A DNA stretch of 64,000 nucleotides from Candidatus Latescibacterota bacterium (GTDB lineage Bacteria; Latescibacterota; UBA2968; UBA8231). The first letter of the stretch is position 1. Each line of letters starts with the position of its first letter. Where the stretch lies: assembly GCA_965215195.1 (NCBI GenBank), contig CBDCDC010000002.1, positions 2,336,001 through 2,400,000 on the forward strand, given 5' to 3'. The position numbers were made by a program, and so were the translations under genes. Positions 8,051 through 55,640 of this stretch are shown piece by piece. The notes beneath the pieces were generated by a model that saw nothing but the letters and a program-made list of their open reading frames with translations, did not search any database and was not told where the DNA came from.

Positions 8051-8195
8051 AATCTCTTTCTCTGCGGTTGTGATAGGCAAGAAGGATCGGATATGCACCG
8101 GGCATTGAACCCAGCTAGGCAGTGGCAATATAACAAGCCGGAATAAACGATTCGAGTGGTAAATCGTCTTGTTCCTACTATCTGATGTAGGATGC

Positions 8196-8346
8196 CTTAG
8201 TACACGACCCCTAAAGTAGGCGACCCTTACTTTGAGTACGCCTTTTCTGCGGTTTCCGCTGGGTGCGGGATCGAGGGCGTCCCCCCTCGACGAGGGCAAG
8301 ATGCCCTCGATCCTTGGCCGGCTGAGGACTAGTGTCGTGTAGTAAG
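8196..8346 (+). mobile_element. MITE copy B (151 bp)
   Basis: Ends cttagtacacgac / gtcgtgtagtaag; flanks gtaggatgc (8187-8195) and gtaggatgt (8347-8355), 8/9 identical; interior matches copy A minus an internal segment. Confidence 0.85.
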
Positions 8347-8409
8347 GTAGGATGTATATTAGAGCCTAATCCAACTTCAACCGTGCTGTCGAATTACAAG
8401 GAGAAAAAT

Positions 8410-25800: not shown

Positions 25801-26017
25801 TACCGAAGCGGAGCCTGCCCTGCCTGTTGAACAAGGTTTCGACGGGGATGCTGAAGATGAGGACGAAAAGCAGCGCATTTTGGCGGCCCTCCAAGCCACG
25901 AAATGGCGGGTCTATGGCCCGCGGGGAGCGGCTCAGTTGTTGGACATGGGCCCGGAGAAGCTGCGGTATCGAATGCGCAAGCACGGGTTGCAACGGCCAA
26001 AGAAGCGGTCGCAGTAA
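22874..26017 (+). CDS. Sigma-54 enhancer-binding protein with N-terminal Reg_prop beta-propeller/YYY sensor domains
   Basis: Repeated I.ED..G.LW.GT..GGL blades; Walker [48 protein letters not shown], Fis-type HTH. Confidence 0.92.
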
Positions 26018-26250: not shown

Positions 26251-26266
26251 TGGCACACAACTTGCA
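26251..26266 (+). promoter_or_regulatory. Sigma-54 (-24/-12) promoter
   Basis: TGGCAC-acaac-TTGCA matches the consensus with correct spacing, 50 bp before the 26317 ATG and directly downstream of the activator gene. Confidence 0.88.
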
Positions 26267-26316: not shown

Positions 26317-27435
26317 ATGGAAGCGCTACTCAATGATTTTGGCCGCGTGTTTGCGTTGGAGCTACTGATGGTCTGTGCTCTTACCATCTGCGGTTGCTAT
26401 ACGGTCTATACGGATATTCACTTCCGCCATATCCCCAATGGGGCGAGTTGGGGCCTAGTGGCCGTAGGGTTGGTCGGCCAAGGTTTATTCTGGCTGTGGG
26501 GAGCGGTCGAACTGGAGCAGGCCGGCCTCGTCTTTTTGGTCGGTTTTGCCGTTAGTTACGCCCTCTATATCTATGGATTCTGGGCGGCAGGCGACGCCAA
26601 ATTGTTTTGGGCTTTTGTCTTGGTGCTGCCGCCGACGTGCTTCTCTTCCCCTTCCCTTTCCTCGTTTAACGCGCCGATTTGGGCCCTGCTGCTCAACGCG
26701 TTCGTGCTCACCTGTTTTGTCTTGCTGGTCTTGTGGGCGATGTTGCGTCGAGGTCGGTCCGCGGAAGCCACGGTGGATTGGGACGCCTCGCAAGGGCTGT
26801 CTCTCGGCTTGGAGTTGGCCGGCCTGATCGGGCTGGTGCTGGGTTTGGGCTCCTTCCTGCTGGGAGAGGCAATGACCTTTGTCGAGGTCGTGGTCGCTGT
26901 CCTCGTACTCTATCTACTCGTTGACCGCTTCGTGCCCCGGCGTTACCGGCTGACCTTGGCCCTGCCCGGTCTGATCTTAGGCGGCTACACGGCCTTGGCA
27001 TCTGGAGACTGGCCGATCTATCTGGTGCTGTGGATCGTCTCTTGGGGGGCGTTCTTCCTCTACCATATCATCCGGCATCTAGCTCCTCGGTCCTTCGTAC
27101 AGGTGCTGCCCATTCAGGCGTTGCGCCAAGGCATGGTGCCGCGTCTGGCGATCTATGCGGCGGATAGAGGAGGGGCCTACCGTTGTGGCGCAGAAGTCGG
27201 GCAAGAGCAGGACGTGCTGTGTCATCCCGGCCGGCCGTTGACGAAGGGGCACGTGCGGACGTTGCACGAAAAATCGGCGGGCGGTGCTTTCGCGCCATTT
27301 GGCAATGAGTTGGCAGTGGAACTGGCCGTCCCATTCGCGCCGATAATCGCTGTCGCTGGGGTGTTGACGGTGGTCTTGGGCGGGAGTCTGATCCAACCAT
27401 TGATCCAGCTATTCTCGCCGTGGCTGCGGTCTTAG
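26317..27435 (+). CDS. A24-family prepilin/class III signal peptidase
   Basis: Catalytic Asp motifs YTDIHFRHIPN and GFWAAGDAKLF; C-terminal VPFAPIIA; polytopic membrane protein. Confidence 0.8.
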   Translation: MEALLNDFGRVFALELLMVCALTICGCYTVYTDIHFRHIPNGASWGLVAVGLVGQGLFWLWGAVELEQAGLVFLVGFAVSYALYIYGFWAAGDAKLFWAFVLVLPPTCFSSPSLSSFNAPIWALLLNAFVLTCFVLLVLWAMLRRGRSAEATVDWDASQGLSLGLELAGLIGLVLGLGSFLLGEAMTFVEVVVAVLVLYLLVDRFVPRRYRLTLALPGLILGGYTALASGDWPIYLVLWIVSWGAFFLYHIIRHLAPRSFVQVLPIQALRQGMVPRLAIYAADRGGAYRCGAEVGQEQDVLCHPGRPLTKGHVRTLHEKSAGGAFAPFGNELAVELAVPFAPIIAVAGVLTVVLGGSLIQPLIQLFSPWLRS

Positions 27436-27445
27436 GGGGCTAACG

Positions 27446-28063
27446 ATGAATCGGGATAGAAAAGACCCTGTGACGATGGCCTTTGGCGTCTTGTTGGTCG
27501 CCTTGCTGCCGACCTTTTTCCTGTTGGCGAGCCGCTATCAGTCGCTCGACGAGCGCATGCGGCAGTTGCAGCCGAAGCCCTTTGTACCCGCGCCTTCCCC
27601 GGAGGACCTGTTGGCGCAAGTAAGCCACGTCGTATCCGACAGTACGCTCCATCTCCAACCGGTCTGGGCTGCCGAGCCGGAACCGACTTCTGGCCTCGTG
27701 GCCGACTACCAAGTCATGCGCGGCGACGAGGCGGTCTATCGGCTGGTGCTGTTCCGCTACGACATCGCTTGTCGTGTGTGCCGGGACGTGCTGGCTGCCG
27801 CCCTGTACGAGGGCGACACACTGGCGCAGATCCTCCTGCTCGACGAGTGGGAGGTGCGCGGCGAGCGGGTGGATACGGCGCGTTTTTTGCGCCAATTCGC
27901 CGGTCGCTTGATGGCGGAGGAACTGGCGCTTGAGTCCAATGTCGATGGAATCAGCGGAGCCACGTTTTCAACCGGGGGCTTGGTCGAACAGCTCAACACA
28001 GCCGCGGCGTGGGTGCGGGAGCATCCGCTGGAGACGCCTGCAAGCGAGGAGAAACGACTGTGA
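27446..28063 (+). CDS. Membrane-anchored FMN-binding (flavinylation motif) protein with CxxC
   Basis: N-terminal TM helix; CRVC; FLRQFAG..VDGISGATFST, the FMN_bind signature. Confidence 0.75.
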   Translation: MNRDRKDPVTMAFGVLLVALLPTFFLLASRYQSLDERMRQLQPKPFVPAPSPEDLLAQVSHVVSDSTLHLQPVWAAEPEPTSGLVADYQVMRGDEAVYRLVLFRYDIACRVCRDVLAAALYEGDTLAQILLLDEWEVRGERVDTARFLRQFAGRLMAEELALESNVDGISGATFSTGGLVEQLNTAAAWVREHPLETPASEEKRL

Positions 28064-28599
28064 ACGCTCTCAGACCCACTCGCGGGGCTACGACCTTGAT
28101 TGTGGCCACGGGCGTCCTGTTGGGAGCCTGTACTTTCTTGGCGGCCAAGATCGTCAACCCCCCTCCCATTGATCCGCTCGATGTGGAGTTTTGGGATTTG
28201 CTGGGCACGCAAGCGGCTATACTGGAATTAGAAGATCTGGCGGGCACGGGCACGGTTTCTAACGCGCAGTTTGTGAACCAGCCCTATTTGATCATTTTCG
28301 CCGACTCTGAATGCAGTGCCTGCGAGAGCATCTATCCCCACCTGCTGCGCGCCTCGCAGGTACAGGGGGTGAATGTCCTGTTGATTGCCTCGGGCGACCG
28401 GCCGGCGATGCACGACAAAATGGAGGAACACAGTTTTGCGTTCCCCGTCGCCTTTGATTCCCTGTTGACGGCGAATGCGCCCTTTGAAGTAAAGGCTTTT
28501 CCGGCCTCCGTATTGGTGGATGCCGAAGGCAACATTGCCAAAGCCGCTACCGGTGACCAGACCGCCATAGCCGTAATACGCTTGGCTGGAAGGTCCTGA
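28060..28599 (+). CDS. TlpA/MauD-like thioredoxin-fold protein
   Basis: GTGA-coupled start; N-terminal anchor; FADSECSAC; FPVAFD; cis-Pro loop AFPASVLVDAEG. Confidence 0.8.
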   Translation: MNALRPTRGATTLIVATGVLLGACTFLAAKIVNPPPIDPLDVEFWDLLGTQAAILELEDLAGTGTVSNAQFVNQPYLIIFADSECSACESIYPHLLRASQVQGVNVLLIASGDRPAMHDKMEEHSFAFPVAFDSLLTANAPFEVKAFPASVLVDAEGNIAKAATGDQTAIAVIRLAGRS

Positions 28600-28614: not shown

Positions 28615-29181
28615 ATGCAATATGTAACGCTCTTGCGTCGTCCGGTGGTGTGGACGGTGATGGCCTGTGCCGCAGTCGTGCTCTTTTTGGCGTTGCGTCC
28701 CTCTTCGTCGGCCATCTCGCCCGTGGTCTGGACCGAGCCATCGGCCAACCCTCTGTCCAAGGTGCTGCGATCGGGGGATGCTGCGCCGGACTTCGCGCTG
28801 CCGGCCGTGCAGGGTGGCGTTGTAGCATTGAGTGCGTTGCAGGGAAAGTCCGCCCTGCTCGCCTTTGTTACGGCGGAATGTCCCTATTGTCAGAAATTAA
28901 ACAAGGAACTCGAAGCCTTTGAACTGAACGCGGATCAACAACTCGTGTTCATCTGCACCGGGGAGGAGGGGGCGCGGAAGATTAGCGAGACCTATTCCTT
29001 TACGTACCCGGTGTTAATTGACTCGGCTGGCGCAGTCTCACAGGCGTACAAGACCCCCGGGGTGCCTACGGTGTATCAGATCGATACCGAGGGGACGGTG
29101 GTGGACTTCGTGTTGGGGTGGCCGCCGGCTTGGGAGTTTGTGCGGGGTTTTGGCCGCGCCCAGCCGAGCGAAGGCTCTTGA
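28615..29181 (+). CDS. TlpA/ResA-like thioredoxin-fold protein
   Basis: N-terminal anchor; GDAAPDFALP; ECPYC; YPVLID; GVPTVYQID..G. Confidence 0.85.
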   Translation: MQYVTLLRRPVVWTVMACAAVVLFLALRPSSSAISPVVWTEPSANPLSKVLRSGDAAPDFALPAVQGGVVALSALQGKSALLAFVTAECPYCQKLNKELEAFELNADQQLVFICTGEEGARKISETYSFTYPVLIDSAGAVSQAYKTPGVPTVYQIDTEGTVVDFVLGWPPAWEFVRGFGRAQPSEGS

Positions 29182-29204
29182 GGTAATTAGCTCAATGACC
29201 ACTA

Positions 29205-29312
29205 CGGCCCAGAAAGGAGGTGTATCCCGTGCTCGCAGGTTTGATGCCAAGTCAGCGACCACAACGGTTCGCTGATCCTTTTCCGACCCTTTTGAGGAGA
29301 AATGCATTATGA
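29205..29312 (+). promoter_or_regulatory. Conserved cassette leader: SD, 27-codon uORF and hairpin (copies at ~32042, ~34889; decayed at ~53226, ~55505)
   Basis: AGAAAGGAGGTG then GTG ORF VLAGLMPSQRPQRFADPFPTLLRRNAL* (29229-29312), whose TGA overlaps the peptide ATG; hairpin 29252-29275. Confidence 0.6.
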
Positions 29313-29635
29313 AGTCCTTAACGTTTGTTTTCGAGGCGACGCTGCTGGCCCCGCTGGTGGAGTTCGCCACGTCGACCAGCGGCCACGTTGAGCCGCGTCA
29401 GGGCTTGGCCTTGGGGTGGTTGGGCAGCGTGGTGGCCGGGCTGGCGGTGGTGTTCGGCACGGCCGACCAGGCGCAGGCCGATCCCTGCAACGAAGGCTGG
29501 CACTGCTCCAACGATATGTGCGACTGGGATCACCATGGAAACCCCATAGCGGCGTATGACAAGAAATGGGTTCACCATCCTAATGACCCCCCTGGATGCG
29601 TAAGCACGGCAAGGGCCTGTACCTGTCCTCCGTAA
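29309..29635 (+). CDS. Secreted 6-Cys peptide precursor 1
   Basis: RBS GAGGAG; 57-aa leader ending AQA; core DPCNEGWHCSNDMCDWDHHGNPIAAYDKKWVHHPNDPPGCVSTARACTCPP. Confidence 0.85.
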   Translation: MKSLTFVFEATLLAPLVEFATSTSGHVEPRQGLALGWLGSVVAGLAVVFGTADQAQADPCNEGWHCSNDMCDWDHHGNPIAAYDKKWVHHPNDPPGCVSTARACTCPP

Positions 29636-29703
29636 TCTACCATCCGGATATATCGCGGCTGTCCAAATAGGAGGATGGTTCTGCGGTAAGTGCTGAGAGG
29701 TAT

Positions 29704-29742
29704 AGCCCCTGTGGCACTCTAGGGCCGGGTGCCACAGGGGCT
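29704..29742 (+). terminator. Conserved strong hairpin between the peptide and FG-GAP genes (copies 32539-32569, 35395-35423, ~37711-37734)
   Basis: agcccctgtggcac...gtgccacaggggct; the outer stem co-varies between copies; no clear U-tract, so it may be a stabiliser or partial terminator. Confidence 0.5.
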
Positions 29743-29829
29743 GGTTATCCTCTGGTCTGCGGAGTCTGTCGTATCATAGAGGTAGAGCATTCGCTCGACT
29801 AACATTCTTCCCCATGCTGGAGGTGCATT

Positions 29830-32019
29830 ATGCGCTGCTTGCTGATTGCGATTGGATTACTATCGGCTCCGCTGGGAGCTTTCGCCCTAACGTGGGATTT
29901 TGACGAGGGGACAACTTGGGGCTGGACCGCCTACGAGAGTGAATTAAACTTCGGCAATCTTAATCCCACCACGGTGTACAGCGAAGTCGAAGATGGTATC
30001 TGGCGCATTGCGCCGGTGCTAAACGGACAGATACCGGCCATTCGCTTGCTCTCGCCGCTGATTGGGGAGGACTCGGCCTTGTTCGACCGGGTCACCCTCC
30101 GGCTGCGTATCATCCATAATCGCCCCACCGGGGGAACCCTCCTGATGGCGTGGTCCAATGGCGAATCCCGACGCCGCAAGCAGGAAGCGGGCCAACTTGG
30201 AAGCCGGTCGGAGTTTTATACGGGCCGTTATCAACTGTATCCCATCGAATGGGAAAATATCACGATAGATATTCGCGCCTTGGAAGCCGGTTTGGAAGCC
30301 AGACAAGAAGAGCCGATTGCGACCATTTGGGCGGATACCTCGATAGTTTGGCAGGACACTCTCTTCCACTTGCAATTAGACCTAAACTTGAACCATAACC
30401 CCGAGGGTCCGGCCGATCATCCTGAGTTTGTCGAAGTCGATTGGATTCAACTGACGGGGGCTGAAGAGTTGCTGTTCGGGGAATTGCAGCCCCGGGCGAT
30501 CGCCAAGGCTGGGTTGCCCGGGGCGTTGTTTGCCGAACCGCGTTTTTCTGCTTTGGGTCCGGGTATCGGTAGCTTAGAATCGCAAGGTACTTTGGGCGAT
30601 GTAGATGGCGATGGCGATGCCGACTTGGTGGTGGTCTGGACCCACGACACGGTCGTCAAAGTGACCGAAGGGACGTTTGAGAGGACGACCCAAGCGGGCT
30701 GGACGGTCGCGTCCAGCGACGGGTTGGGCGGCTTGGGTCCCACCCGAGAGGTGCTCCGCGGAGGCGAGCCCCTCATGGGCATTGCGGGGGACGACTTCAA
30801 CGGGGATGGACTGCTTGATCTGGCCTTTCGTGATGGTCGGACCCTCGAATTGTGGCTCAACCGGGGCGAGGATGGCTTTGAAACCATCCTCCAGCTATCC
30901 GACGTGTGGTTCGAGGGCTTAGCCGATGGCGATGGCGATGGCGATGTGGACCTGTTGGTCTGGGAGTTCGCCGACCGATTCCACCTACTAGAGTCGCAGG
31001 TGATTATGTGGATCAATGACGGCGCGGCCGGGTTTGCCCACCGCGATCGGTTCGTCCTCGACACCGAAGAAGACCTCCGTGCTTTCCTGCTGGCCGGGCA
31101 ACCGGAGGGCGAGGCCGTGCGCCTGTTGTGGTCCCGACCGTCCTGCAAGCCTGGGGGGACTTTACGGCTGACCCAGCCGTGGGCGGCCAGCGAGCAGTCT
31201 CCGCTGTTTTTTGACGCCCCGCTCAATCCCTGCGACCTGCACCTGCTCACCGATCTGGACGGGGATGGGGCGGTGGAGTTGGTTGGGACACCCGAGCGGA
31301 ATCTATACTTCGACTTTGATGTTCTCACCACCTACCACGGTTTGGCGTTGTGGCGAGTGGACGCTTCGGGCGGGGTGGAACGCCACGACCTGCTCGGTCC
31401 GCAGGTGCTTCTGCCGGATCCGTATTTTGATGATGGGGTCCTTGCCCGCGACCTGACTGGCGATGGCCTGCTGGACTTGGCCGTAGTGGATGTCAACCCG
31501 GCGACGGGGCCGGCGCTGGTGGTGCTGGTCGGCCAGCGCGATGGGGTGCCCGTCGTCGAGGGGCGCTATCCGCTGCCGGGCGTGGGCGCCGAAGTGCTCG
31601 CCGGCGATGTCAACGGCGATGGGGCTGTTGATCTGGTGGTGTTGGGCAGGAGTGTGGAAGGGGGCGATGGCGGGGCCTTCGTCTTTCTCAATCAAAGCGT
31701 CCCGGCCACTGCTATCGCGGCCGAGACGACGGCGACGCCCGCAACATTTGCGTTAGGTGCCAACTATCCCAACCCGTTCAATCCGGCTACGACGATCCCC
31801 GTATCGGTGGCGGGTGCGGGCGACGTGGCCGTAACCATCTACAACGTCTTGGGGCAGCCGGTGCGCGCGGTGTGGAACGGTCCGTTGGCGGCGGGCGAGC
31901 ATCGGCTGACGTGGGATGGCCGAGACGGGCAGGGGCAATCCGTCGCCGCCGGAGTCTATCTGGTGCGGCTGCACCAAGGCGACCACACGCGCCTCCGCAA
32001 GATGGTCAAACTCGAATAG
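29830..32019 (+). CDS. Secreted FG-GAP/VCBS repeat protein with N-terminal CBM-like domain and C-terminal FlgD-Ig/T9SS-like sorting domain (paralog 1)
   Basis: Signal peptide; GDVDGDGDADL, DFNGDGLLDL, DLTGDGLLDL and GDVNGDGAVDL repeats; ANYPNPFNP..IYNVLGQPVR..WDGRD..GVY. Confidence 0.88.
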   Translation: MRCLLIAIGLLSAPLGAFALTWDFDEGTTWGWTAYESELNFGNLNPTTVYSEVEDGIWRIAPVLNGQIPAIRLLSPLIGEDSALFDRVTLRLRIIHNRPTGGTLLMAWSNGESRRRKQEAGQLGSRSEFYTGRYQLYPIEWENITIDIRALEAGLEARQEEPIATIWADTSIVWQDTLFHLQLDLNLNHNPEGPADHPEFVEVDWIQLTGAEELLFGELQPRAIAKAGLPGALFAEPRFSALGPGIGSLESQGTLGDVDGDGDADLVVVWTHDTVVKVTEGTFERTTQAGWTVASSDGLGGLGPTREVLRGGEPLMGIAGDDFNGDGLLDLAFRDGRTLELWLNRGEDGFETILQLSDVWFEGLADGDGDGDVDLLVWEFADRFHLLESQVIMWINDGAAGFAHRDRFVLDTEEDLRAFLLAGQPEGEAVRLLWSRPSCKPGGTLRLTQPWAASEQSPLFFDAPLNPCDLHLLTDLDGDGAVELVGTPERNLYFDFDVLTTYHGLALWRVDASGGVERHDLLGPQVLLPDPYFDDGVLARDLTGDGLLDLAVVDVNPATGPALVVLVGQRDGVPVVEGRYPLPGVGAEVLAGDVNGDGAVDLVVLGRSVEGGDGGAFVFLNQSVPATAIAAETTATPATFALGANYPNPFNPATTIPVSVAGAGDVAVTIYNVLGQPVRAVWNGPLAAGEHRLTWDGRDGQGQSVAAGVYLVRLHQGDHTRLRKMVKLE

Positions 32020-32145
32020 ACACATGAGTCTATTCTCTCTTCGGCCCAGAAAGGAGGTGTATCCCGTGCTCGCAGGTTTGATGCCAAGTCAGCGACCACA
32101 ACGGTTCGCTGATCCTTTTCCGACCCTTTTGAGGAGAAATGCATT

Positions 32146-32466
32146 ATGAAGTCCTTAACGTTTGTTTTCGAGGCGACGCTGCTGGCCCCGCTGGTGGAGT
32201 TCGCCACGTCGACCAGCGGCCACGTTGAGCCGCGCCAGGGCTTGGCCTTGGGGTGGTTGGGCAGCGTGGTGGCCGGGCTGGCGGTGGTGTTCGGCACGGC
32301 CGACCAGGCGCAGGCCGATCCCTGCAACGAAGGCTGGCACTGCTCCAACGATATGTGCGCCGAGGATCACCATGGAAACGGTCTTGCGGCGTGGGACAGA
32401 TACTATGTCCACGATGATGAAAATCACTGCACAAACACGATTAGTTCCTGTAGCTGTCCTCCGTAA
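32146..32466 (+). CDS. Secreted 6-Cys peptide precursor 2
   Basis: Leader identical in amino acids to precursor 1; core DPCNEGWHCSNDMCAEDHHGNGLAAWDRYYVHDDENHCTNTISSCSCPP. Confidence 0.85.
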   Translation: MKSLTFVFEATLLAPLVEFATSTSGHVEPRQGLALGWLGSVVAGLAVVFGTADQAQADPCNEGWHCSNDMCAEDHHGNGLAAWDRYYVHDDENHCTNTISSCSCPP

Positions 32467-32664
32467 TCTACCATCCGAGTATATCATGGCTGTCCAAATA
32501 GGAGGATGGTTCTACAGTAAGTGCTGAGAGGTATAGCCCATGTGGCACTCTCGGGCCGGGTGCCACATGAGATGTTTATCCTCTGGTCTACTGCGTCTGT
32601 CGGGTGGACATAGAGAGGGTACTTGATCAGCTCACACTCCTTCCCTCATTGCTGGAGGTAAACT

Positions 32665-34866
32665 ATGCGCTACTTGCTCTTAGTCATTTTGTTGTTGGCG
32701 GCTCCGCTGGGAGTCTTGGCCATAACGTGGGATTTTGACGACGGCACTACTGGGGGCTGGACCGCCCACGAGAGCTTCTTAGGCGAGCTCAGGGCAGTTA
32801 CTCCCACCACAGTGTACAGCGAAGTCGAAGCCGGCGTCTGGCGCATTGCGCCGGTGCCGAATGGGCAGATACCGGCCATTCGCTTGCTCTCGCCGCTGAT
32901 AGGGGAAGACTCGGCTCTGTTCGACCGGGTCACCCTCCGGCTGCGCATCCTCCACGATCGCCCCACTGGGGGGAACCTCCTGATGAACTGGTCCAATGCC
33001 GAGTCCCGACGCCGCAAGCAGGAAGACTACAGACTAGACAGCCGGTCGGGGTTTTATACGCTCCGTTATCAATACTATCCCATCGACTGGGAAAACGTCA
33101 CGATAGATATACGCGGCTTGGAAGCCGGGGCGGAAGCGAGACGACAAGAGCCGATTGCGACCATTTGGGCGGACACGGCGATCACTTGGCAGGACACCCT
33201 TTTCCACTTGCAGCTAGACCTCAACGTAAACCGCGACCCCCAGGGTCCGGCCGATCATCCGGCCTTTGTCGAAGTCGATTGGATTCAACTGACGGGGGCT
33301 GAAGAGCTGCTGTTCGGGGAATTGCCGCCCCGGGCGGTCGCCGGGGCGGCCGGGGGGCCCGGAGCGTTGTTCGCCGAGCCGCGTTTTTCTCTGCTGGGCT
33401 GGAGTATCGGTAGTCCTCCATTCTCGCAAGGTACGTTGGGCGATATAGATGGCGATGGGGATGCCGATCTGGTGGTGGTCTGGACGTACTTTGAGTCCGT
33501 CAAAGTGACCGAAGGGACGTTTGATCGAACGACCCAAGCGGGCTGGACGGTCGCGTCCAGCGACGGGTTGGGTGGCTTGGTTCCCACCCGAGAAGTGCTC
33601 CGCGGAGGCGAAGATCTCATGGGCATTGCGGGGGGCGATTTCAACGGCGATGGGCTTCTTGATCTGGCCTTTCGTGATGGTCGGACCCTCGAATTGTGGC
33701 TCAACCGGGGCGAGGATGGCTTTGAAACCATCCTCCAGCTATCCGACGTCTCTTTCAAAGGCTTAGCCGATGGCGACGGCGACGGCGATGTGGACCTGTT
33801 GGTCAGGGAATACGACGACCGGTTCCATCTACTATCGTCCGAAGTGATTATGTGGCTCAATGACGGTGCGGCTGGGTTTGCCCACCGCGATCGGTTCGTC
33901 CTCGACACCGAAGAAGATTTCACTCCTCGGCTGACGACGGGGCAACCGGTGGGCGAGGCCGTGCGCGTATTGTGGATCCGAGGGATCCGAGGGTGCTATG
34001 CCGGGGAGGCTCGTCTGACCCAGCCATGGGCGGCCAGCGAGCCACCCCCGCTGTTTCTTGACGCCGAGCTCAATCCCTGCGACCTGCAGCTAATCACCGA
34101 TCTGGATGGGGATGGGACGGTGGAGTTGATCGGGACGCCCGAGCGGAATCTATACTTCGACTTTCTTGATGGCATCACCTACCACGGTTTGGCGCTGTGG
34201 CGGGTGGACGCTGCGGGCGGGGTGGAACGCCACACTCTGCTCGGTCCGCAGGTGATGGTGCCGGATGAGAATTATGGTGGGGTCCTTGCCCACGACCTGA
34301 CTGGTGATGGCCTGCTGGACTTGGCCGTGGTGGATGGCAACCCGGCGACGGGGCCGGCACTGATCGTCTTGGTCGGCCAGCGCGATGGGGTGCCTGTCGT
34401 CGAAGGGCGCTACCCCCTGCCGGGCGTGGGCAGCCAAGTGCTCGCCGGCGATGTCAACGGCGATGGGGCGACCGATCTGGTGGTGCTGGGCAGGAGTGTG
34501 GACGGCGGTTTGGGCGGGGCCTTCGTCTTTCTCAACCAGAGCAGTCCGATGACAGCCGTGGCCAGTGAGACCGCGATCACGCCCTCCACCGTTGCCCTCG
34601 GCGCGAACTACCCCAATCCGTTCAATCCGGCCACGACGATCCCCGTATCGGTGGCGGCGGATGCGGGCGACGTGGCCGTAACCATCTACAACGTCTTGGG
34701 GCAGCCGGTGCGCGCGGTGTGGAACGGTCCGTTGGCGGCGGGCGAGCATCGGCTGACGTGGGATGGCCGAGACGGGCAGGGGCAATCCGTCGCCGCCGGA
34801 GTCTATCTGGTGCGGCTGCACCAAGGCGACCACACGCGCCTGCGCAAGATGGTCAAACTCGAATAG
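32665..34866 (+). CDS. FG-GAP/FlgD-Ig secreted protein (paralog 2)
   Basis: Same architecture as 29830-32019; RBS GGAGGT. Confidence 0.88.
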   Translation: MRYLLLVILLLAAPLGVLAITWDFDDGTTGGWTAHESFLGELRAVTPTTVYSEVEAGVWRIAPVPNGQIPAIRLLSPLIGEDSALFDRVTLRLRILHDRPTGGNLLMNWSNAESRRRKQEDYRLDSRSGFYTLRYQYYPIDWENVTIDIRGLEAGAEARRQEPIATIWADTAITWQDTLFHLQLDLNVNRDPQGPADHPAFVEVDWIQLTGAEELLFGELPPRAVAGAAGGPGALFAEPRFSLLGWSIGSPPFSQGTLGDIDGDGDADLVVVWTYFESVKVTEGTFDRTTQAGWTVASSDGLGGLVPTREVLRGGEDLMGIAGGDFNGDGLLDLAFRDGRTLELWLNRGEDGFETILQLSDVSFKGLADGDGDGDVDLLVREYDDRFHLLSSEVIMWLNDGAAGFAHRDRFVLDTEEDFTPRLTTGQPVGEAVRVLWIRGIRGCYAGEARLTQPWAASEPPPLFLDAELNPCDLQLITDLDGDGTVELIGTPERNLYFDFLDGITYHGLALWRVDAAGGVERHTLLGPQVMVPDENYGGVLAHDLTGDGLLDLAVVDGNPATGPALIVLVGQRDGVPVVEGRYPLPGVGSQVLAGDVNGDGATDLVVLGRSVDGGLGGAFVFLNQSSPMTAVASETAITPSTVALGANYPNPFNPATTIPVSVAADAGDVAVTIYNVLGQPVRAVWNGPLAAGEHRLTWDGRDGQGQSVAAGVYLVRLHQGDHTRLRKMVKLE

Positions 34867-34992
34867 ACACATGAGTCTATTCTCTCTTCGGCCCAGAAAG
34901 GAGGTGTATCCCGTGCTCGCAGGTTTGATGCCAAGTCAGCGACCACAACGGTTCGCTGATCCTTTTCCGACCCTTTTGAGGAGGAATGCATT

Positions 34993-35319
34993 ATGAAGTC
35001 TTTGACGTTTGTTTTGGAGGCGACGCTGCTGGCCCCGCTGATGGAGTTCGCCACGTCGACCAGCGGCCACGTGGAGCCGCGCCAGGGCTTGGCCCTCGGC
35101 TGGCTGGGTAGCGTGGTGGCCGGGCTGGCGGTGGTGTTCGGCACGGCCGACCGGGCGCAGGCCGATCCTTGCAACGAAGGCTGGCACTGCTCCGACCCCC
35201 CCGAGGCATGCGAGTGGCATAAAAATGGAAACGTTCTAAAGTCGTGGAACTACTACTATAGCCACAGTCCTACTGATGGCTGTATAAGGTCGTCAAGTTC
35301 CTGTGTCTGTACTCCGTGA
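34993..35319 (+). CDS. Secreted 6-Cys peptide precursor 3
   Basis: Leader has 3 substitutions; core DPCNEGWHCSDPPEACEWHKNGNVLKSWNYYYSHSPTDGCIRSSSSCVCTP. Confidence 0.85.
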   Translation: MKSLTFVLEATLLAPLMEFATSTSGHVEPRQGLALGWLGSVVAGLAVVFGTADRAQADPCNEGWHCSDPPEACEWHKNGNVLKSWNYYYSHSPTDGCIRSSSSCVCTP

Positions 35320-35517
35320 TCTACCATCCGGGTATATGGTGGCTGTCGCCAAATAGGAGGACGGTGCTGTAGTACATGCTGAGACGTATAGCCCATGTGG
35401 CACTTTAGGGCTGGGTGCCACATCGGCTTTTGGCTTCTGTTCTACTGCGTCTATCCCTCGAATAGAGGTAGGGTGTTTGAGCAGCTAACACTTCTCCACT
35501 GACTCAGGAGGTGCATT

Positions 35518-37704
35518 ATGCGCTGCTTGTTCATTACGATTGGCTTGTTGGCGGCTCCGCTGGGAGCCTTCGGTTTAACGTGGGATTTTGACGAGGGCAC
35601 CACTTGGGGCTGGACCGCCCACGAGAGCGAATTAGGCAATGATGGTGGCGTTCGTCCCACCACGGTGTACAGCGAAGTCGAAGACGGCGTCTGGCGCATT
35701 GCGCCGGTGCCGGTCGCGCAACGACCCGCCATTCGCTTGCTCTCGCCGCTGATAGGGGAAGACTCGGCCCTGTTCGACCAGGTCACCCTGCGGCTACGCA
35801 TCATCCACGACCGCCCCACTTGGGGAAACCTCCTGATGTACTGGTCCAATGGCGAGTCCAGACGCCGCAAGCAGGAAGCGGGCCAACTCGGAAGCAGCAG
35901 GTTGGGGTTTTATACGCTTCGTCTTCAACTCTATCCCATCGAATGGGAAAACATCACGATAGATATACGCGCCTTGGAAGCGGCGGCGGAAGCGAGACGA
36001 CAAGAGCCGGTCGCGACCATTTGGCCGGACACCGCGGTCACGTGGCAGGACACCCTCTTCCACTTGCAACTAGACCTAAACTTAAACCAAGACGCTCAAG
36101 GTCCGGCCGATCATCCGGCCTTTGTCGAAGTCGATTGGATCCAACTGACGGGGGCCGAAGAGTTGCTGCTGGGGGAATTGCCGCCCCGGGCGATTGCCGA
36201 GACTGGGCTACCCGGCGCGTTGTTCGCCGAACCGCGCTTTTCTGTGCTGGGTCCGGGTATCGGTGGCGTATTCTCGCAAGGTGTTTTGGGCGATGTGGAC
36301 GGCGATGGGGATGCTGATCTGGTGGTGGTCTGGAGATACTACACGGTCGTCTGGATAACCGAAGAGACGGTTGAGACGACGTCCCATACGGGCTGGACCA
36401 TAGCGTCCAGCGACGGGTTGGGCGGCTTGGTTCCCACCCGAGAGGTGCTCCTTCCAAGCCAAGACAGGTTCGCGCCCCTCATGGGGATTGCGGGGGGCGA
36501 TTTCGACGGGGATGGGCTTTTCGATCTGGCCTTTGAGGAAGGATTGAACCTTGAACTGTGGCTCAACCGAGGCGAGCATGGCTTTGAAACCATCCTCCAA
36601 CTATCCGACGTCTATTTCAAAGGCTTAGCCGATGGCGACGGCGATGGCGATGTGGACCTGTTGGTCGGGGAGATCGACGACCCATGGTCCAACGTGATTA
36701 TGTGGCTCAATGACGGCGTGGGCGGTTTTGGCCACAGCGATGGGTTCGTCCTCGATACCGAGGAAGAGCTCGGTTCTTTCCTGCTGGCCGGGCAACCGGG
36801 AGGCGAGGCCGTGCGCGTGTTGTGGAACCGACCCTGCTACCAGCCGTTGGGTACTTGGCGGCTGACCCAGCCGTGGGCGGCCAGCGAGCAGTCTCCGCTG
36901 TTTTTTGACGCCGAGGTCAATCCCTGTGACCTGCATCTGCTGACCGATCTGGATGGGGATGGGGCAGTGGAGTTCATCGGGACGCCCGAGCGGAATCTAT
37001 TCTTCGACTTTGATGCGATCACCACCTACCACGGTTTGGCGCTGTGGCGGGTGGACGCTGCGGGCAGGGTGGAACGCCACGACCTGCTCGGTCCGCAGGT
37101 GATGGTGCCGTATGCGGGGGGAGTCCTTGCCCGTGACCTGAGCGGCGATGGCCTGCTGGACTTGGCCGTAGTGGATGTCAACCCGGCGACGGGTCCGGCG
37201 CTGGTGGTGCTGGTCGGCCAGCGCGATGGGGTGCCCGTCGTTGAGGGGCGCTATCCGCTGCCGGGCGTGGGCAGCCAAGTGCTCGCCGGCGATGTCAACG
37301 GCGATGGGGCGACCGATCTGGTGGTGTTGGGCAGGAGTGTGGAAGGGGGCGACGGCGGGGCCTTCGTCTTTCTCAACCAGAGCAGTCCGATGACAGCCGT
37401 AGCGGTTGAGTCGGCCACGCCATCGGCTTTTACCCTCGGCGCGAACTATCCCAATCCATTCAATCCGGCTACGACCCTCCCCGTATCGGTGGCGGCAGAT
37501 GCGGGCGACGTGGCCGTAACCATCTACAACGTCTTGGGGCAGCCGGTGCGCGCGGTGTGGAACGGTCCGTTGGCGGCGGGCGAGCATCGGCTGACGTGGG
37601 ATGGCCGAGACGGGCAGGGGCAATCCGTCGCCGCCGGAGTCTATTTGTATCGGTTGCAGGTGGGCGAGCAGACACGTCTCCGCAAGATGGTCAAACTCGA
37701 ATAG
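35518..37704 (+). CDS. FG-GAP/FlgD-Ig secreted protein (paralog 3)
   Basis: Same architecture; RBS AGGAGGT. Confidence 0.88.
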   Translation: MRCLFITIGLLAAPLGAFGLTWDFDEGTTWGWTAHESELGNDGGVRPTTVYSEVEDGVWRIAPVPVAQRPAIRLLSPLIGEDSALFDQVTLRLRIIHDRPTWGNLLMYWSNGESRRRKQEAGQLGSSRLGFYTLRLQLYPIEWENITIDIRALEAAAEARRQEPVATIWPDTAVTWQDTLFHLQLDLNLNQDAQGPADHPAFVEVDWIQLTGAEELLLGELPPRAIAETGLPGALFAEPRFSVLGPGIGGVFSQGVLGDVDGDGDADLVVVWRYYTVVWITEETVETTSHTGWTIASSDGLGGLVPTREVLLPSQDRFAPLMGIAGGDFDGDGLFDLAFEEGLNLELWLNRGEHGFETILQLSDVYFKGLADGDGDGDVDLLVGEIDDPWSNVIMWLNDGVGGFGHSDGFVLDTEEELGSFLLAGQPGGEAVRVLWNRPCYQPLGTWRLTQPWAASEQSPLFFDAEVNPCDLHLLTDLDGDGAVEFIGTPERNLFFDFDAITTYHGLALWRVDAAGRVERHDLLGPQVMVPYAGGVLARDLSGDGLLDLAVVDVNPATGPALVVLVGQRDGVPVVEGRYPLPGVGSQVLAGDVNGDGATDLVVLGRSVEGGDGGAFVFLNQSSPMTAVAVESATPSAFTLGANYPNPFNPATTLPVSVAADAGDVAVTIYNVLGQPVRAVWNGPLAAGEHRLTWDGRDGQGQSVAAGVYLYRLQVGEQTRLRKMVKLE

Positions 37705-37833
37705 ACACATTGGCACTCTAGGGCCGGATGCCACATGGACTAATGGTCCTCTGTTCTACTGCGTCTATCCCTCGAATACGAATGGAGGTAGGGCGTTTGA
37801 TCGGCTCACACTCCCCCACTCTGGAGGTGCATT

Positions 37834-40038
37834 ATGCGCTACTTGCTCACTACGATTGGCTTGTTGTCGGCACCACTTGGAGCCTTCGCTTTAACGTGGG
37901 ATTTTGACGAGGGGACAACTTGGGGCTGGACCGCCTACGAGAGCATCTTAGGCAATCTCAGTTCAGTTACTCGCACCACGGTGTACAGCGAAGTCGAAGC
38001 TGGCGTCTGGCGCATTGCGCCGGTGCCGAATGGGGAAAGACCGGCCATTAGCTTACTCTCGCCGCTGATAGGGGAAGACTCGGCTCTGTTCGACCGGGTC
38101 ACCCTCCGGCTGCGCATCCTCCACGATCGCCCCACCGGGGGGAACCTCCTGATGAACTGGTCCAATGCCGAGTCCCGACGCCGCAAGCAGGAAGACTACA
38201 GACTAGCCAGCCGGTCGGGGTTTTATACGCTCCGTCCTCAACTCTATCCCATCGAATGGGAAAACGTCACGATAGATATACGCGCCTTGGAAGCCGCGGC
38301 GGAAGCGAGACGACAAGAGCCGATTGCGACCATTTGGGCGGACACGGCGATCACTTGGCAGGACACCCTCTTCCACGTGCAGCTAGACCTAAACTTACAC
38401 ACCAACCCCCAGGGTCCGGCCGATCATCCGGCCTTTGTCGAAGTCGATTGGATTGAACTGACGGGGGCTGAAGAGTTGCTGTTCGGAGAATTGCAGCCCC
38501 GGGCGATCGCCGAGGCCGGGTTGCCCGGGGCGTTGTTCACCGAGCCGCGTTTTTCTGCTTTGGGCCCGAGTATCGGTAGCTCATCCTCGCAAGGTACGTT
38601 GGGCGATGTAGATGGCGATGGGGATGCCGATTTGGTGGTGGTTTGGACCCACGACACGGTCGTCAAAGTGACCGAAGAGACGTTTGAGAGGACGACTCAA
38701 GCGGGCTGGACCATAGCGGCCAGCGACGAGTTGGGCGGTTTGATCCCCACCCGAGAGGTGCTTCTTCTAGGCGAAGATCGCTTGGGGATTGCGGGGGGCG
38801 ATTTCGATGGCGATGGGCTGCTCGATCTGGCCTTTATTGAAGGTACTCAGGGTATTAATCAGACCCTCGAATTGTGGCACAATCGGGGCGAGCAGGGCTT
38901 TGAAACCATCCTCCAGCTATCCGACATCTATTTCGAAGGCCTCGCCGATAGCGACGGCGACAGCGATGTGGACCTGTTGGTCGGGGAGTACGACGAGCTA
39001 CGGGACGAGCTAGTATGGTCGCAGGTGATTATGTGGATTAACAACGGCGCGGCCGGGTTTGCCGACCGCAATCGGTTCGCCGTCGGCAGCGAAGAAGATC
39101 TCTTGCCTTTCCTGCTGGCAGGGCAGCCGTTGGGCGAGGCCGTGCGCCTGTTGTGGCTGCGACCCTGCTACCAGCCTCAGGGGCTTTGGCGGCTGACCCA
39201 GCCGTGGGCGGCCAGCCAGCCCTCCCCGCTGTTTTTTGACGCCGAGGTCAATCCCTGCAACTTGCACCTGCTGACCGATCTGGATGGGGATGGAGCGGTG
39301 GAGTTGGTTGGGTCGCCCGAGCGGGATCTATTCTCCAACTTTGATGCTGGCTCCACCTACCACGGTTTGGCGCTGTGGCGGGTGGATGCCTCGGGCGAGG
39401 TGGAACGCCACGACCTGCTCGGTCCGCAGGTGCTCGTGCCGGATGAGAATTATGGTGGGGTCCTTGCCCGCGACCTGACTGGCGATGGCCTGCTGGACTT
39501 GGCCGTAGTGGATGTCAACCCGGCGACGGGGCCGGCGCTGGTGGTGCTGGTCGGCCAGCGCGATGGGGTGCCTGTCGTCGAGGGGCGCTATCCCCTGCCG
39601 GGCGTGGGCAGCCAAGTGCTCGCCGGCGATGTCAACGGCGATGGGGCTGTTGATCTGGTGGTGCTGGGCAGGAGTGTGGACGGCGGTCTCGGCGGGGCCT
39701 TCGTCTTTCTCAACCAGAGCAGTCCGCCTACAGCCGTAGCGGTTGAGTCGGCCACGCCATCGGCTTTTGCCCTCGGCGCGAACTATCCCAATCCATTCAA
39801 TCCAGCCACGACCCTTCCCGTATCGGTGGCGGGTGCGGGCGACGTGGCCGTAACCATCTACAACGTCTTGGGGCAGCCGGTGCGTCAAGTATGGAACGGT
39901 CCGCTGGCGGCGGGCGAGCATCGGCTGACGTGGGATGGCCGAGACGGGCAGGGGCAGCCGGTCGCGGCCGGGGTCTATCTGGTGCGGCTGCACCAAGGCG
40001 ACCACACGCGCCTCCGCAAGATGGTCAAACTCGAATAG
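37834..40038 (+). CDS. FG-GAP/FlgD-Ig secreted protein (paralog 4; its peptide gene is deleted)
   Basis: Same architecture; only the hairpin remnant survives upstream. Confidence 0.88.
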   Translation: MRYLLTTIGLLSAPLGAFALTWDFDEGTTWGWTAYESILGNLSSVTRTTVYSEVEAGVWRIAPVPNGERPAISLLSPLIGEDSALFDRVTLRLRILHDRPTGGNLLMNWSNAESRRRKQEDYRLASRSGFYTLRPQLYPIEWENVTIDIRALEAAAEARRQEPIATIWADTAITWQDTLFHVQLDLNLHTNPQGPADHPAFVEVDWIELTGAEELLFGELQPRAIAEAGLPGALFTEPRFSALGPSIGSSSSQGTLGDVDGDGDADLVVVWTHDTVVKVTEETFERTTQAGWTIAASDELGGLIPTREVLLLGEDRLGIAGGDFDGDGLLDLAFIEGTQGINQTLELWHNRGEQGFETILQLSDIYFEGLADSDGDSDVDLLVGEYDELRDELVWSQVIMWINNGAAGFADRNRFAVGSEEDLLPFLLAGQPLGEAVRLLWLRPCYQPQGLWRLTQPWAASQPSPLFFDAEVNPCNLHLLTDLDGDGAVELVGSPERDLFSNFDAGSTYHGLALWRVDASGEVERHDLLGPQVLVPDENYGGVLARDLTGDGLLDLAVVDVNPATGPALVVLVGQRDGVPVVEGRYPLPGVGSQVLAGDVNGDGAVDLVVLGRSVDGGLGGAFVFLNQSSPPTAVAVESATPSAFALGANYPNPFNPATTLPVSVAGAGDVAVTIYNVLGQPVRQVWNGPLAAGEHRLTWDGRDGQGQPVAAGVYLVRLHQGDHTRLRKMVKLE

Positions 40039-45525: not shown

Positions 45526-45570
45526 ATAGGGGGGCGCGTGTTAGGTGCTGCCGAAAAGAGAGGGCATAAG

Positions 45571-46905: not shown

Positions 46906-47177
46906 GGGCTGTTGTGCCGCAATACTATAACCACGTTTGCCAAGAACTCGGCGATCTGCTGGGCATTTCCGGCTAAGCGCATATACGCCGACGTTAGGCG
47001 GTCAGACAAGGCGGATGAAACCCGCCTCGCCATAGAGCAGGCAGACGGGCGCAGGCTACACGTTCCTGTCCGCGCAAAAGATCGAAAATTTGCCGAAGAC
47101 CTCTCCGCGGAGCGCAAGTGAGTACGCTTACAGCAAGTCCTTGCCGACCCCAACGGGTTTTAGAAACGCATCTAAAG

Positions 47178-49388: not shown

Positions 49389-49409
49389 ACGACCGAGCTT
49401 GGAGCCGAC

Positions 49410-49685
49410 ATGCTGGAGAAATTGCGCCACTTGCAGCATTTAAGCATCCGGCTGAAATGGGCCGGCACGGTTGAAGGGCTGCCGCGCCACGAGTGCCCCG
49501 TACTGATCTTTTTCCACGGCTACGGCTTGGCTCACACCATCCGCCCGCTGCGGGTGCGCGGCTACCCCGTCGAATTCGCAGGAGTGGGGCCTCCGCCGAA
49601 AATTCCGGCAGGGTCGGTGGGCTGTGCGCGTTCAATATTACCATTCCCCGAAGTCGATCCCAACTAGACAAAAACGGACGATTGA
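49410..49685 (+). pseudogene. Collapsed remnant of a duplicated GT-transglutaminase...FG-GAP module
   Basis: 5' part matches 40060-40275 (GTVEGLPRHECPVLIFFHG..LAHTIRPL..RGYPVEFAGVGP); later pieces match ~44520, ~44589 and the 45525 stop region. Confidence 0.85.
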
Positions 49686-49733
49686 ATGGGGGGGCGCGTG
49701 TTAGGTGCTGCCGAAAAGAGAGGGCATAAGACG

Positions 49734-51044: not shown

Positions 51045-51064
51045 CCCCACTCTGGAGGTGCATT

Positions 51065-53203: not shown

Positions 53204-53319
53204 ACGACCCGAGTCTATCATCCCTCCGGCCAGAAAGGAGGTGTATTCCGTGCTCGCAGGTTTGATGCCAAGTCAGCAACCACAATGTCTTGTGTTCTAC
53301 CTCTAAAGGGAGACAAACT

Positions 53320-55482: not shown

Positions 55483-55640
55483 ACGACCCGAGTCTATCAT
55501 CTCTTCGGCCAGAAAGGAGGTGTATTCCGTGCTCGTAGATTTGATGCCAAGTCAGCAACCACAACGGTTTGCTGGTCATTTTTCCTACCACTCAAGGAGG
55601 ATTTAGTTATGAAGTCTTTGCCTCTAAAGGGAGGTTCGTT

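Follow-up and report, generated by a model that had tools for sequence, protein, structure and literature searches.

Three short genes in a 64,000-nucleotide (nt) stretch of DNA from a Candidatus Latescibacterota bacterium (contig CBDCDC010000002.1, positions 2,336,001 to 2,400,000) begin almost identically and end very differently, and the question they raise is what kind of product is made in this way, how it is matured and where it acts. The whole stretch is called the window here, and positions are window coordinates unless they carry the prefix C2 or the number of a related locus (L005 and the like). A short account written from the letters of this DNA, referred to below as the original prediction, had described the genes as three precursor peptides with a near-invariant leader, a fixed six-Cys scaffold and hypervariable loops. 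We read them as members of a lineage-restricted, multi-copy superfamily of exported, oxidatively folded mini-proteins that are under diversifying selection and are served by a dedicated maturation module, and we give this reading a probability of roughly 0.6.

Near-identical leaders precede divergent, cysteine-framed cores

The three open reading frames (ORFs; small genes 1 to 3 in Table 1) lie on the forward strand where they had been placed. Their products share a leader of 57 residues, identical in 54 of 57 N-terminal columns of the alignment of the three proteins, and the cores that follow, of 51, 49 and 51 amino acids (aa), fit the pattern DPCNEGWHCS-x3/5-C-x25/23/23-C-x6-C-x-C-x-P. The six Cys stay in register, most other core positions differ, and there are two small indels; codons are also richer in AT in this part, as had been noted from the letters, with GC content at third positions of 0.57-0.61 in the cores versus 0.91-0.93 in the leaders. 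Each small gene belongs to a repeat cassette that consists of ~125 nt of conserved upstream DNA, the small gene, a spacer and a gene for a protein of ~730 aa. In the aligned window cassettes, nucleotide identity is 93-100% across the ~125 upstream nt and the leader, ~59% in the most variable core window (54-60 nt; flanking core windows 74-94% and 75-78%), 66-93% in the spacer and ~85% in the large gene. Contigs from four DNA runs of one study were fragmented and repeat-collapsed, with many apparent joints between tandem units, and we draw no conclusion from them.

A leader-defined family within one bacterial lineage

We surveyed the organism's own genome (6.13 Mb, 2 contigs) by a protein search and then with a leader profile made from its matches, and recovered 11-12 leader-bearing genes that fall into four groups. 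The first is the three window genes; the second is one small gene 400 kb off, downstream of a 94-96% identical copy of three upstream genes; the third comprises three small genes whose leader is shorter and diverged and whose products have 8-11 Cys; and the fourth comprises four proteins of 255-290 aa that have a single leader, two Cys-rich modules and a type IX secretion system (T9SS) type A sorting domain. In one of these fused paralogues (C2:2779125-2779988, equivalent to L005:1501-2364), the second Cys-rich module opens with a duplicate of the last part of the leader hydrophobic segment and its cut site, which reads as a scar of unequal recombination among leader-bearing genes.

A large protein database gave 189 candidates, 184 of which match at E<=0.01; the few that bear a name are all called 'hypothetical protein'. 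Searching with the leader, as had been proposed, thus recovered further cores in the genome and in the database, most of them Cys-rich. The pattern described for the three precursors is real, lies far beyond chance and recurs in the 184 database homologues, although three is not their number in the genome. Among the 120 best homologues, mean pairwise identity is 85% in the leader and 38% in the core, and the cores have 6 Cys in 62 cases, 4 in 31, 8 in 17 and other numbers in 10; the fixed six-Cys scaffold therefore describes the three window genes and not the family, across which the Cys framework differs. When 1.84 billion cluster representatives were searched with a profile of the leader alone, 74 proteins matched at E<=0.001; we judged three or more of these to be unrelated repeat proteins, and most of the others are 50-140 aa long with 4-10 Cys in many frameworks.

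The 17 related loci retrieved from public genomes are titled Candidatus Latescibacterota or Latescibacteria in 16 cases and Gemmatimonadota in one. In a set of 168 genomes of the phylum, the leader occurs in 27, every one of which belongs to a single family (26 of 75 leaving out the window's genome); it is found in 20 of 30 genomes of the window's genus, at up to 20 copies per genome. Pfam and NCBIfam scans of the small protein matched no family model (Pfam E<=0.01), DUF4266 (PF14086) and ESPR included, and PADLOC returned no family among seven proteins. The best Protein Atlas clusters (0.84 and 0.78, commonest label Candidatus Poribacteria) stayed under the level at which that tool offers more than a lead and were not used as evidence. 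Searches of full-text literature gave no account of the family or of the module described below, and the flavinylation-cluster list in supplementary file 1 of PMC8238504 might hold this cluster type. The accessible parts of two papers on sponge peptides and sponge-associated Latescibacterota (PMC12426817 and PMC12993501) do not mention the family.

Cores change faster than leaders

Rates of synonymous (dS) and nonsynonymous (dN) change among four close paralogues of the genome were estimated by the method of Nei and Gojobori. The cores have a dS of 0.24-0.36, a dN of 0.30-0.48 and a dN/dS of 1.0-1.9, versus a dN/dS of 0.17-0.44 in the leaders; the co-duplicated large genes (730 aa) have a dS of 0.21-0.33, a dN of 0.11-0.13 and a dN/dS of 0.37-0.53. 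Because core dS is similar to the dS of the co-duplicated neighbour, the cores are not merely older, and their amino acids are replaced at the neutral rate or faster, with the Cys scaffold retained. Between small genes 1 and 2 the leader dS is 0.02 versus 0.30 in the cores, which points to recent gene conversion of the 5' part. Across 22 genes of several species the leader is clearly under purifying selection (median dN 0.09, dS 0.51, omega 0.16, no pair above 1). Cross-species dN/dS was dropped as a test of positive selection on the core, whose dS is saturated (median 1.18) and whose omega is therefore uninformative. The difference in dN/dS that had been anticipated between leader and core is thus seen among paralogues and cannot be read across species, and diversifying selection, which the original prediction had put forward, is suggested by the core dN/dS and the neighbour-like dS but is not proven, given the small counts per pair and the cross-species saturation.

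Because the scaffold (Cys, D-H-x-G-x-P, His) is kept and other positions change at or above the neutral rate, we favor a binding or antagonistic molecule with a shifting target. The opposite view, that the small genes are non-functional, decaying duplicates whose 5' ends are alike through gene conversion alone, could draw on the leader dS of 0.02 and the core dN/dS of about 1 for small genes 1 and 2. However, all frames are open, the Cys and the D-H-G-P/H motif are kept in 117 sequences, the fold prediction is confident, leader omega is 0.16 across species and synteny is conserved across genera, and we give decay next to no chance. Core variation consistent with neutral decay had been named as an outcome that would overturn the original prediction; the conserved scaffold, the leader omega and the synteny contradict it.

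The core is predicted to be a three-stranded beta-meander

AlphaFold2 with the family alignment modeled the core alone at a mean predicted local distance difference test (pLDDT) score of 89.8, with strands at residues 6-16, 22-33 and 39-49, and the core is accordingly predicted to be a meander of three long antiparallel beta-strands. In the full-length AlphaFold2 model, successive 10-residue blocks of the core score 92, 96, 93, 80 and 94, and the leader is of low confidence. A folded mini-domain at a pLDDT of about 90 agrees with the Cys-framed mini-protein proposed from the letters, and the noted abundance of certain residues holds for the 120 homologues (H 5.4%, W 4.1%, Y 7.3%, D 7.3%, next to C 10.2%). 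Besides the Cys, the core keeps a turn of the form [WFY]-D-H-x-G-x-P and, in strand 2, a His, and the Cys positions and the D-H-G-P/H motif persist across 117 sequences; judging from the conserved D-H...H motif, the core may bind metal. Foldseek searches found no match at E<=0.001, either for the full-length model against PDB and BFVD or for the core-only model against PDB. The defensin-like bacteriocin laterosporulin appeared at E 6.6-7.0 and a TM of about 0.40 only, and by comparison against PDB the core resembles neither defensin-like, laterosporulin-type bacteriocins nor knottins. A profile search of PDB sequences gave three chance-level rows and nothing related.

The leader joins an N-terminal extension to a Sec-type signal

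The ATG start is supported by a conserved GGAGG 6-9 nt 5' of it in 18 of 18 aligned loci, and protein conservation begins at Met 1 in both subfamilies, which also favors the chosen start. Both subfamilies keep M1, E18, F19, S22, G25, R30, G36 and G44 without exception. Three parts can be told apart in the leader: an N-extension, the first ~25 residues, that closes in E-F-x-x-S-x-S-G (in other genera EFxxSESG or EFxxSDSG); a few polar residues that include the invariant Arg, followed by an 18-residue hydrophobic segment; and a small-x-small site just ahead of the first Cys, which is AQA here and AEA, AAA, SSA or ARA elsewhere. Ala occupies position -1 of the predicted cut site in 90% or more of 117 sequences. 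Read from these motifs, R30, the 18-residue stretch and A-Q-A make up the elements of a Sec (type I) signal peptide, with AxA or SxA in distant genera, and the leader looks like an extended Sec signal in which parts 2 and 3 have textbook anatomy; its n-region, at ~31 residues, is unusually long, and the strongly conserved N-extension is its unusual feature. Autotransporters have a comparable arrangement in the ESPR, a conserved extension before the Sec signal peptide. The present leader differs from it in lacking a Pfam ESPR match, in its 50-aa peptide cargo and in the dedicated protease that co-occurs with it.

Four leader-bearing paralogues pass the cut-off of the T9SS sorting-domain model TIGR04183 (40.4, 34.2, 29.9 and 27.4 bits versus 23), and the genome encodes a PorU sortase (628.6 bits versus a cut-off of 420). 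Because the same leader sits on T9SS cargo, it carries its proteins across the inner membrane to the periplasm, and the relatives fused to T9SS sorting domains indicate that superfamily modules reach the cell surface or beyond.

A protease and redox module accompanies the leader

Directly upstream of small gene 1 lie genes for an A24-like protease, a flavin mononucleotide (FMN)-binding protein and two thioredoxin-like proteins, Tlp1 and Tlp2 (Table 1). The order protease, FMN-binding protein, Tlp1, Tlp2, small gene is retained in 11 of the 17 related loci, the other six being contigs of 2.9-4.0 kb or inner array copies. In these 11 loci the neighbor genes are 77-90% identical to those of the window, and the small protein is 52-64% identical in 10 and 86% identical in the closest, L015. 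A second copy of the module, ~39% diverged, lies elsewhere in the genome among diverged-leader genes and comprises protease, FMN-binding protein, two thioredoxins and a glycosyltransferase-transglutaminase gene. The most telling evidence for a conserved neighborhood comes from three genomes of two other genera, in which the protease is 31-36% identical and the module is contiguous with leader-bearing Cys-rich genes in permuted order; the large FG-GAP gene of the window cassettes is not adjacent in four of five such distant modules. Among 76 genomes of the family, 24 have both leader and protease, three the leader only, four the protease only and 45 neither, counts that we give as a description and not as a test because the genomes are kin and not independent.

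All 14 aligned homologues of the protease, the most distant at 32% identity, retain D33 and the motif G92-D93-A-K-L unchanged, and by analogy we take the D33 and D93 motifs to be the two catalytic aspartates of GxGD proteases. One homologue is annotated 'A24 family peptidase' in its source, and the only two Peptidase_A24 matches of the genome (33.5 and 36.7 bits) are the two module copies. In this 95.2% complete genome, there was no match to a type II/IV assembly ATPase (PF00437, T2SSE), a platform protein (PF00482, T2SSF) or an N-methyl pilin (PF07963), models that detected their targets in 13, 13 and 8 of 14 reference genomes. A pilin reading was dropped on this ground, and the two A24-type peptidases stand as orphan prepilin-type peptidases. 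Because an A24 protease without a pilus system adjoins an invariant-Gly motif before a hydrophobic helix, the leader-bearing proteins point to being its substrates. A complex prediction for the protease with leader residues 1-62 scored 0.44 (runs 0.44, 0.41 and 0.48, sharing at least 86% of contacts, partner pLDDT at least 61) versus 0.00 for the best of three controls, which the tool rates as 'weak support'; in calibration, 58 of 80 solved complexes attained its mark, as did 2 of 110 mismatched pairs, and at 0.60 or less only 7 of the 80 did so, together with both mismatches.

The same observations could be taken to mean that the product stays in the membrane, like a TMcin or a pilin. An A24-like cut after S-x-S-G would then leave a molecule of ~83 aa that keeps its helix, its hypervariable, Cys-rich head either facing the periplasm or borne on a surface structure, with the AxA site unused. 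The tight linkage of an A24-type protease to the leader family fits this, as do the invariant Gly 25 where prepilin peptidases need Gly at -1 and the complex prediction, with the calibration just given. Type IV prepilins and class III substrates share with the present system an A24 GxGD protease with both Asp motifs and an invariant Gly N-terminal to a hydrophobic helix; here, however, seven polar residues separate Gly and helix, no Glu is conserved at +5, a signal-peptidase-I site follows the helix and a Cys-rich mini-domain takes the place of a pilin head. Precedent also exists in TMcins, a class of modified ribosomal peptides formed in the membrane of Staphylococcus which, in the accessible part of PMC13252029, have a leader and a transmembrane helix that the product keeps, an S2P/DUF3267 intramembrane leader protease, a cluster-encoded DsbA, one essential disulfide and an ATP-binding cassette (ABC) exporter. 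The present system instead has an A24 protease, three to five disulfides, a core probably freed by signal peptidase and no ABC exporter seen, and no TmcBC-like ABC extractor occurs in the window or the distant loci. A type IV filament is impossible without assembly ATPase, platform protein and N-methyl pilin, the small-x-small site after the helix is conserved throughout the superfamily, and the four same-leader paralogues are T9SS cargo and must therefore be released into the periplasm. We therefore regard a membrane-retained product as rather unlikely.

Turning to the redox proteins, all 16 homologues of the FMN-binding protein carry an [ST]GA[ST] motif, and in the accessible text of PMC8238504 [S/T]GA[S/T] is the motif flavinylated by ApbE. 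The genome encodes ApbE elsewhere (273.9 bits, C2:1747201). Tlp1 has its CxAC in 16 of 17 homologous stretches and Tlp2 its CPYC in 16 of 19; the start codon of Tlp1 is uncertain because its ORF overlaps the preceding gene. Since the FMN-binding protein, Tlp1 and Tlp2 each start with a hydrophobic anchor, all three should face the periplasm. A MauA/MauD-like maturation, of the tryptophan-quinone type, was considered and dropped, the MauD matches being 32.6 and 29 bits versus a cut-off of 188.6, with no other mau gene seen.

Could the small proteins be part of the redox chain itself, as electron carriers or substrates of an extracytoplasmic flavin/thioredoxin relay like the DUF4266 CXC proteins? 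The parts list parallels the flavinylation clusters of PMC8238504, which, as far as the accessible text goes, combine a [S/T]GA[S/T] FMN-binding protein with thioredoxin-like proteins and with small Cys proteins that are secreted; the FMN-binding protein and thioredoxins are neighbors without exception, and a C-x-C lies within the last six residues of 74 of 120 homologues. Against this, that ending is missing in 46 of the 120 and in 30 of 48 representatives, no Pfam family matches, DUF4266 included, and hypervariability, multi-copy arrays and T9SS fusions are unexpected for a housekeeping carrier. The membrane partner here is also an A24-type protease and not the DsbD, NapH or PepSY protein of the clusters in that part of PMC8238504. 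A carrier role is very unlikely in our judgment.

Relation to ribosomal peptides with modified cores

The original prediction had recognized the pattern of precursors of peptides that are made by ribosomes and modified after translation (RiPPs). The conserved leader and variable core (85% versus 38%) bear this out as a pattern, but strict RiPP status is unsupported given the Sec anatomy, the T9SS paralogues and the lack of a modifying enzyme among the scanned neighbors. In a true RiPP pathway, the leader would recruit the GT1-transglutaminase fusion encoded downstream and a GT2 enzyme, and the core would be glycosylated, as in glycocins, or modified at Trp or His. The leader/core architecture would suit such a pathway, and genus g1 keeps two glycosyltransferase genes downstream of the cassette array. 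Glycocin clusters combine a precursor, thiol-disulfide oxidoreductases and a glycosyltransferase, which counts in favor of this view, and glycocin (sublancin-type) and pediocin-type clusters share with the present locus a multi-disulfide ribosomal peptide beside its own thiol-disulfide oxidoreductases. However, the double-glycine leader and the C39 peptidase/ABC transporter of those clusters are absent here, and Tlp2 matches the PedC/BrcD model weakly (E 0.0039, far below cut-off). The GT1-transglutaminase fusion is syntenic in genus g1 only and the glycosyltransferases are missing from the distant-genus modules, which places these enzymes outside the conserved core. Pfam and NCBIfam scans of the neighbors found no radical-SAM, YcaO, lanthipeptide, RiPP recognition element (RRE) or like gene; the neighbors are protease, FMN-binding-like and thioredoxin-like, with glycosyltransferases in one genus. 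A Sec-type leader would moreover export an unfolded peptide away from cytoplasmic enzymes. Added core chemistry of this kind is in our view quite unlikely.

Putative control regions

The sole zero-mismatch TGGCAC-N5-TTGCW in the window, a sequence which we take to be the -24/-12 consensus of sigma-54 promoters, precedes the protease gene (Table 1). Homologues of the sigma-54 activator stand upstream in several related loci, and the window copy is directly upstream of the module. Each small gene is preceded by a conserved element of ~110 nt. Its CAGAAAGGAGG box is invariant, a U-rich tract follows its 10-bp hairpin, and a strong Shine-Dalgarno sequence comes after these; the hairpin has compensatory changes at four pairs among 18 aligned upstream regions. 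In L026 and L030 an exact sigma-54 consensus stands ~35 nt 5' of the CAGAAAGGAGG box (upstream of position 10001), and for this reason the element is probably a 5' untranslated region (UTR). It could act as an attenuator or as a stability element. An Rfam scan of 28900-35600 gave no match. An upstream ORF within the conserved 5' region was dropped as a candidate, its frame not being kept across species.

A proposed route and its weak points

Taken together, we propose the following route for the exported mini-proteins. The adjacent sigma-54 activator probably switches the operon on. The 57-aa leader would serve as a two-part signal for export and processing, with the precursor inserted by Sec, and the A24-type GxGD intramembrane protease would bind or clip the N-extension at or near S-x-S-G on the cytoplasmic face. 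Signal peptidase I would cut at AQA, freeing the ~50-aa core. The two membrane-anchored TlpA-like thioredoxins (CxAC and CPYC) would form or shuffle the three disulfides, and the extracytoplasmic flavinylated FMN-binding protein would carry electrons, re-oxidizing or reducing the thioredoxins. The exported core would fold to a three-stranded antiparallel beta-meander pinned by three disulfides, and the cores may act on variable external targets, for example competitors, phage or host molecules. Purifying selection, together with gene conversion among paralogues, would keep the leader and the 5' UTR constant.

Several observations weigh against this reading. As to selection, the core dN/dS above 1 comes from ~27 synonymous sites per pair; core nonsynonymous differences (pN) compared with neighbor synonymous differences (pS) gave z = -0.08, 1.18 and 2.21 in the three window pairs, of which one alone passes 2; across species core omega has a median of 0.54 and exceeds 1 in 7% of 175 finite pairs (22 genes); and two orthologous cross-genome pairs show purifying selection on the core (omega 0.18 and 0.37). 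Because these orthologous cores are conserved, diversification would lie mainly among paralogues and not among orthologues. As to the protease, by the tool's calibration a score of the 0.44 type is wrong in the majority of cases unless the pairing was probable from the start, and a hydrophobic helix beside a membrane protein may score in this way without true binding; S-S-S-G lies seven polar residues from the helix without a Glu at +5 and would be a non-canonical A24 substrate; and the protease is not obviously needed if signal peptidase I frees the core. Both predicted cut sites, after G25 and after A57, are read from motifs. As to the redox proteins, the FMN_bind match (18.6 bits) lies under the Pfam cut-off of 22, and TlpA-family proteins act as reductants more often than as oxidants. 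Lastly, the three small proteins have no T9SS domain and therefore no assigned route beyond the periplasm; they may stay there, enter vesicles or be exported along with a T9SS partner.

Comparison with animal and plant peptide families

Conotoxin genes have a pre-pro region that is conserved and a mature peptide that is hypervariable. Conotoxin superfamilies, legume NCR peptides and, as far as the accessible account of it goes, mussel MgCRP-I likewise combine a conserved signal or pre-pro region by which the superfamily is defined, a hypervariable Cys-framed mature peptide and multi-copy arrays. In organization the present family resembles these and also leader-guided peptide pathways. Here, by contrast, the family is bacterial, its extended Sec signal has an N-extension and a protease/redox module stands alongside; Foldseek and the PDB profile search found no relationship of sequence or fold. 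Tentatively, and as a possibility that we would not yet expect to hold, these genes might represent an undescribed, conotoxin-like class of bacterial peptides: leader-defined, hypervariable multi-disulfide mini-proteins with a repurposed GxGD leader peptidase, a flavin-linked relay of two thioredoxins and sigma-54 control. We know of no peptide pathway with such a maturation module. Families with a conserved leader and a hypervariable Cys core are a hallmark of animal venoms and host-defence peptides and have proven to be stable, drug-like scaffolds; comparable bacterial families are, to our knowledge, hardly known. Should the kit operate in the proposed way, prepilin-type peptidases would gain a new role outside pili, ApbE-type flavinylation would be tied to oxidative peptide folding, and a portable system for disulfide-rich peptide libraries would be at hand. 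If the producers are sponge symbionts, for which the lead comes from the phylum literature only, they would be a possible microbial source of the sponge 'cysteine-bridged peptides', whose origin is mostly unexplained.

Features of the locus and large partner genes

Table 1. Position of the small genes, the accompanying module and adjoining features in the window
Feature	Position	Strand	Details
Sigma-54-dependent activator with Reg_prop/Y_Y_Y sensor repeats	22874-26017	+	Sigma54_activat 2.6e-64, Reg_prop 8.1e-38, HTH_8
Sigma-54 promoter-like site (putative)	26251-26266	+	exact -24/-12 consensus, 50 nt 5' of the A24-like gene
A24-like GxGD-type polytopic aspartyl protease	26317-27435	+	372 aa; Peptidase_A24 30.7 bits vs 26.5 cut-off
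Membrane-anchored FMN-binding-domain-like protein	27446-28063	+	SGAT flavinylation-type motif; FMN_bind 18.6 bits, weak RnfG matches
TlpA/ResA-like thiol-disulfide oxidoreductase 1 (Tlp1, CxAC)	28009-28599	+	Pfam AhpC-TSA/Redoxin; weak NCBIfam ResA/MauD
TlpA/ResA-like thiol-disulfide oxidoreductase 2 (Tlp2, CPYC)	28615-29181	+	Pfam AhpC-TSA 5.3e-17, Redoxin 8.5e-14
Conserved 5' untranslated element of small gene 1	29195-29308	+	repeats at ~32032-32145 and ~34879-34992
Small gene 1	29309-29635	+	108 aa; leader residues 1-57 (29309-29479), 6-Cys core residues 58-108 (29480-29632)
FG-GAP/VCBS repeat protein with T9SS C-terminal sorting domain (partner 1)	29830-32019	+	FG-GAP_3 4.2e-16; TIGR04183 36 bits vs 23
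Small gene 2	32146-32466	+	106 aa; leader 32146-32316, core 32317-32463
FG-GAP/T9SS protein (partner 2)	32665-34866	+	~81% identical to partner 1
Small gene 3	34993-35319	+	108 aa; leader 34993-35163, core 35164-35316
FG-GAP/T9SS protein (partner 3)	35518-37704	+	cassette partner
Fourth FG-GAP/T9SS copy	37834-40038	+	no small gene ahead
GT1-like glycosyltransferase fused to transglutaminase-like domain	40060-42558	+	Transglut_core 5e-16, EryCIII-like_C 1.3e-8

The cassettes raise one more possibility, namely that the mini-protein binds the adjoining FG-GAP/T9SS protein (elsewhere a secreted family of ~300 aa) as a co-exported or regulatory subunit. The small-plus-large cassette is triplicated in the window, an FG-GAP gene follows the small gene in most related loci, the small genes of distant genera sit among multi-copy secreted proteins of ~300 aa, and fused forms with Cys module and T9SS domain exist. 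The large genes nevertheless outnumber the small ones, with the fourth window copy and up to five in a row elsewhere lacking a small gene, and in L027 no FG-GAP gene follows the small gene. The chance that partnership is what the small proteins are for appears slight, and it is compatible with, not exclusive of, the preferred reading of exported, oxidatively folded mini-proteins.

The window holds at least eight FG-GAP/T9SS paralogues (29830-40038 and 47118-57737), and the genome gives ~29 tblastn matches of at least 300 aa. Patches of 100% identity within regions of ~85% make these copies a gene-conversion mosaic, and their dN/dS of about 0.4-0.5 is high given a length of 730 aa. Interleaved with the FG-GAP genes are three that encode DUF4159 proteins (45538-46905, 49686-51044 and 57873-59177). 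The fusion gene at 40060-42558, whose transglutaminase-like domain is of the cysteine-protease type, is conserved at 83-87% among related loci; the genome holds five or more full-length paralogues of it (33-50% identity), one of them in the second module copy.

Around the distant-genus modules runs a multi-copy secreted family of ~300-330 aa without a Pfam match, whose copies are 37-91% identical (L033:5145-6119; L034:6772-7662 and 7700-8692; L032, L035 and L037; remoter copies in the window's genome), and it may be the counterpart of the FG-GAP partners. Finally, a 13-nt perfect inverted repeat lies at 29705-29741, 70 nt past the stop of small gene 1 and before the large gene; no T-run follows it, and it could tune the ratio of small to large transcript.

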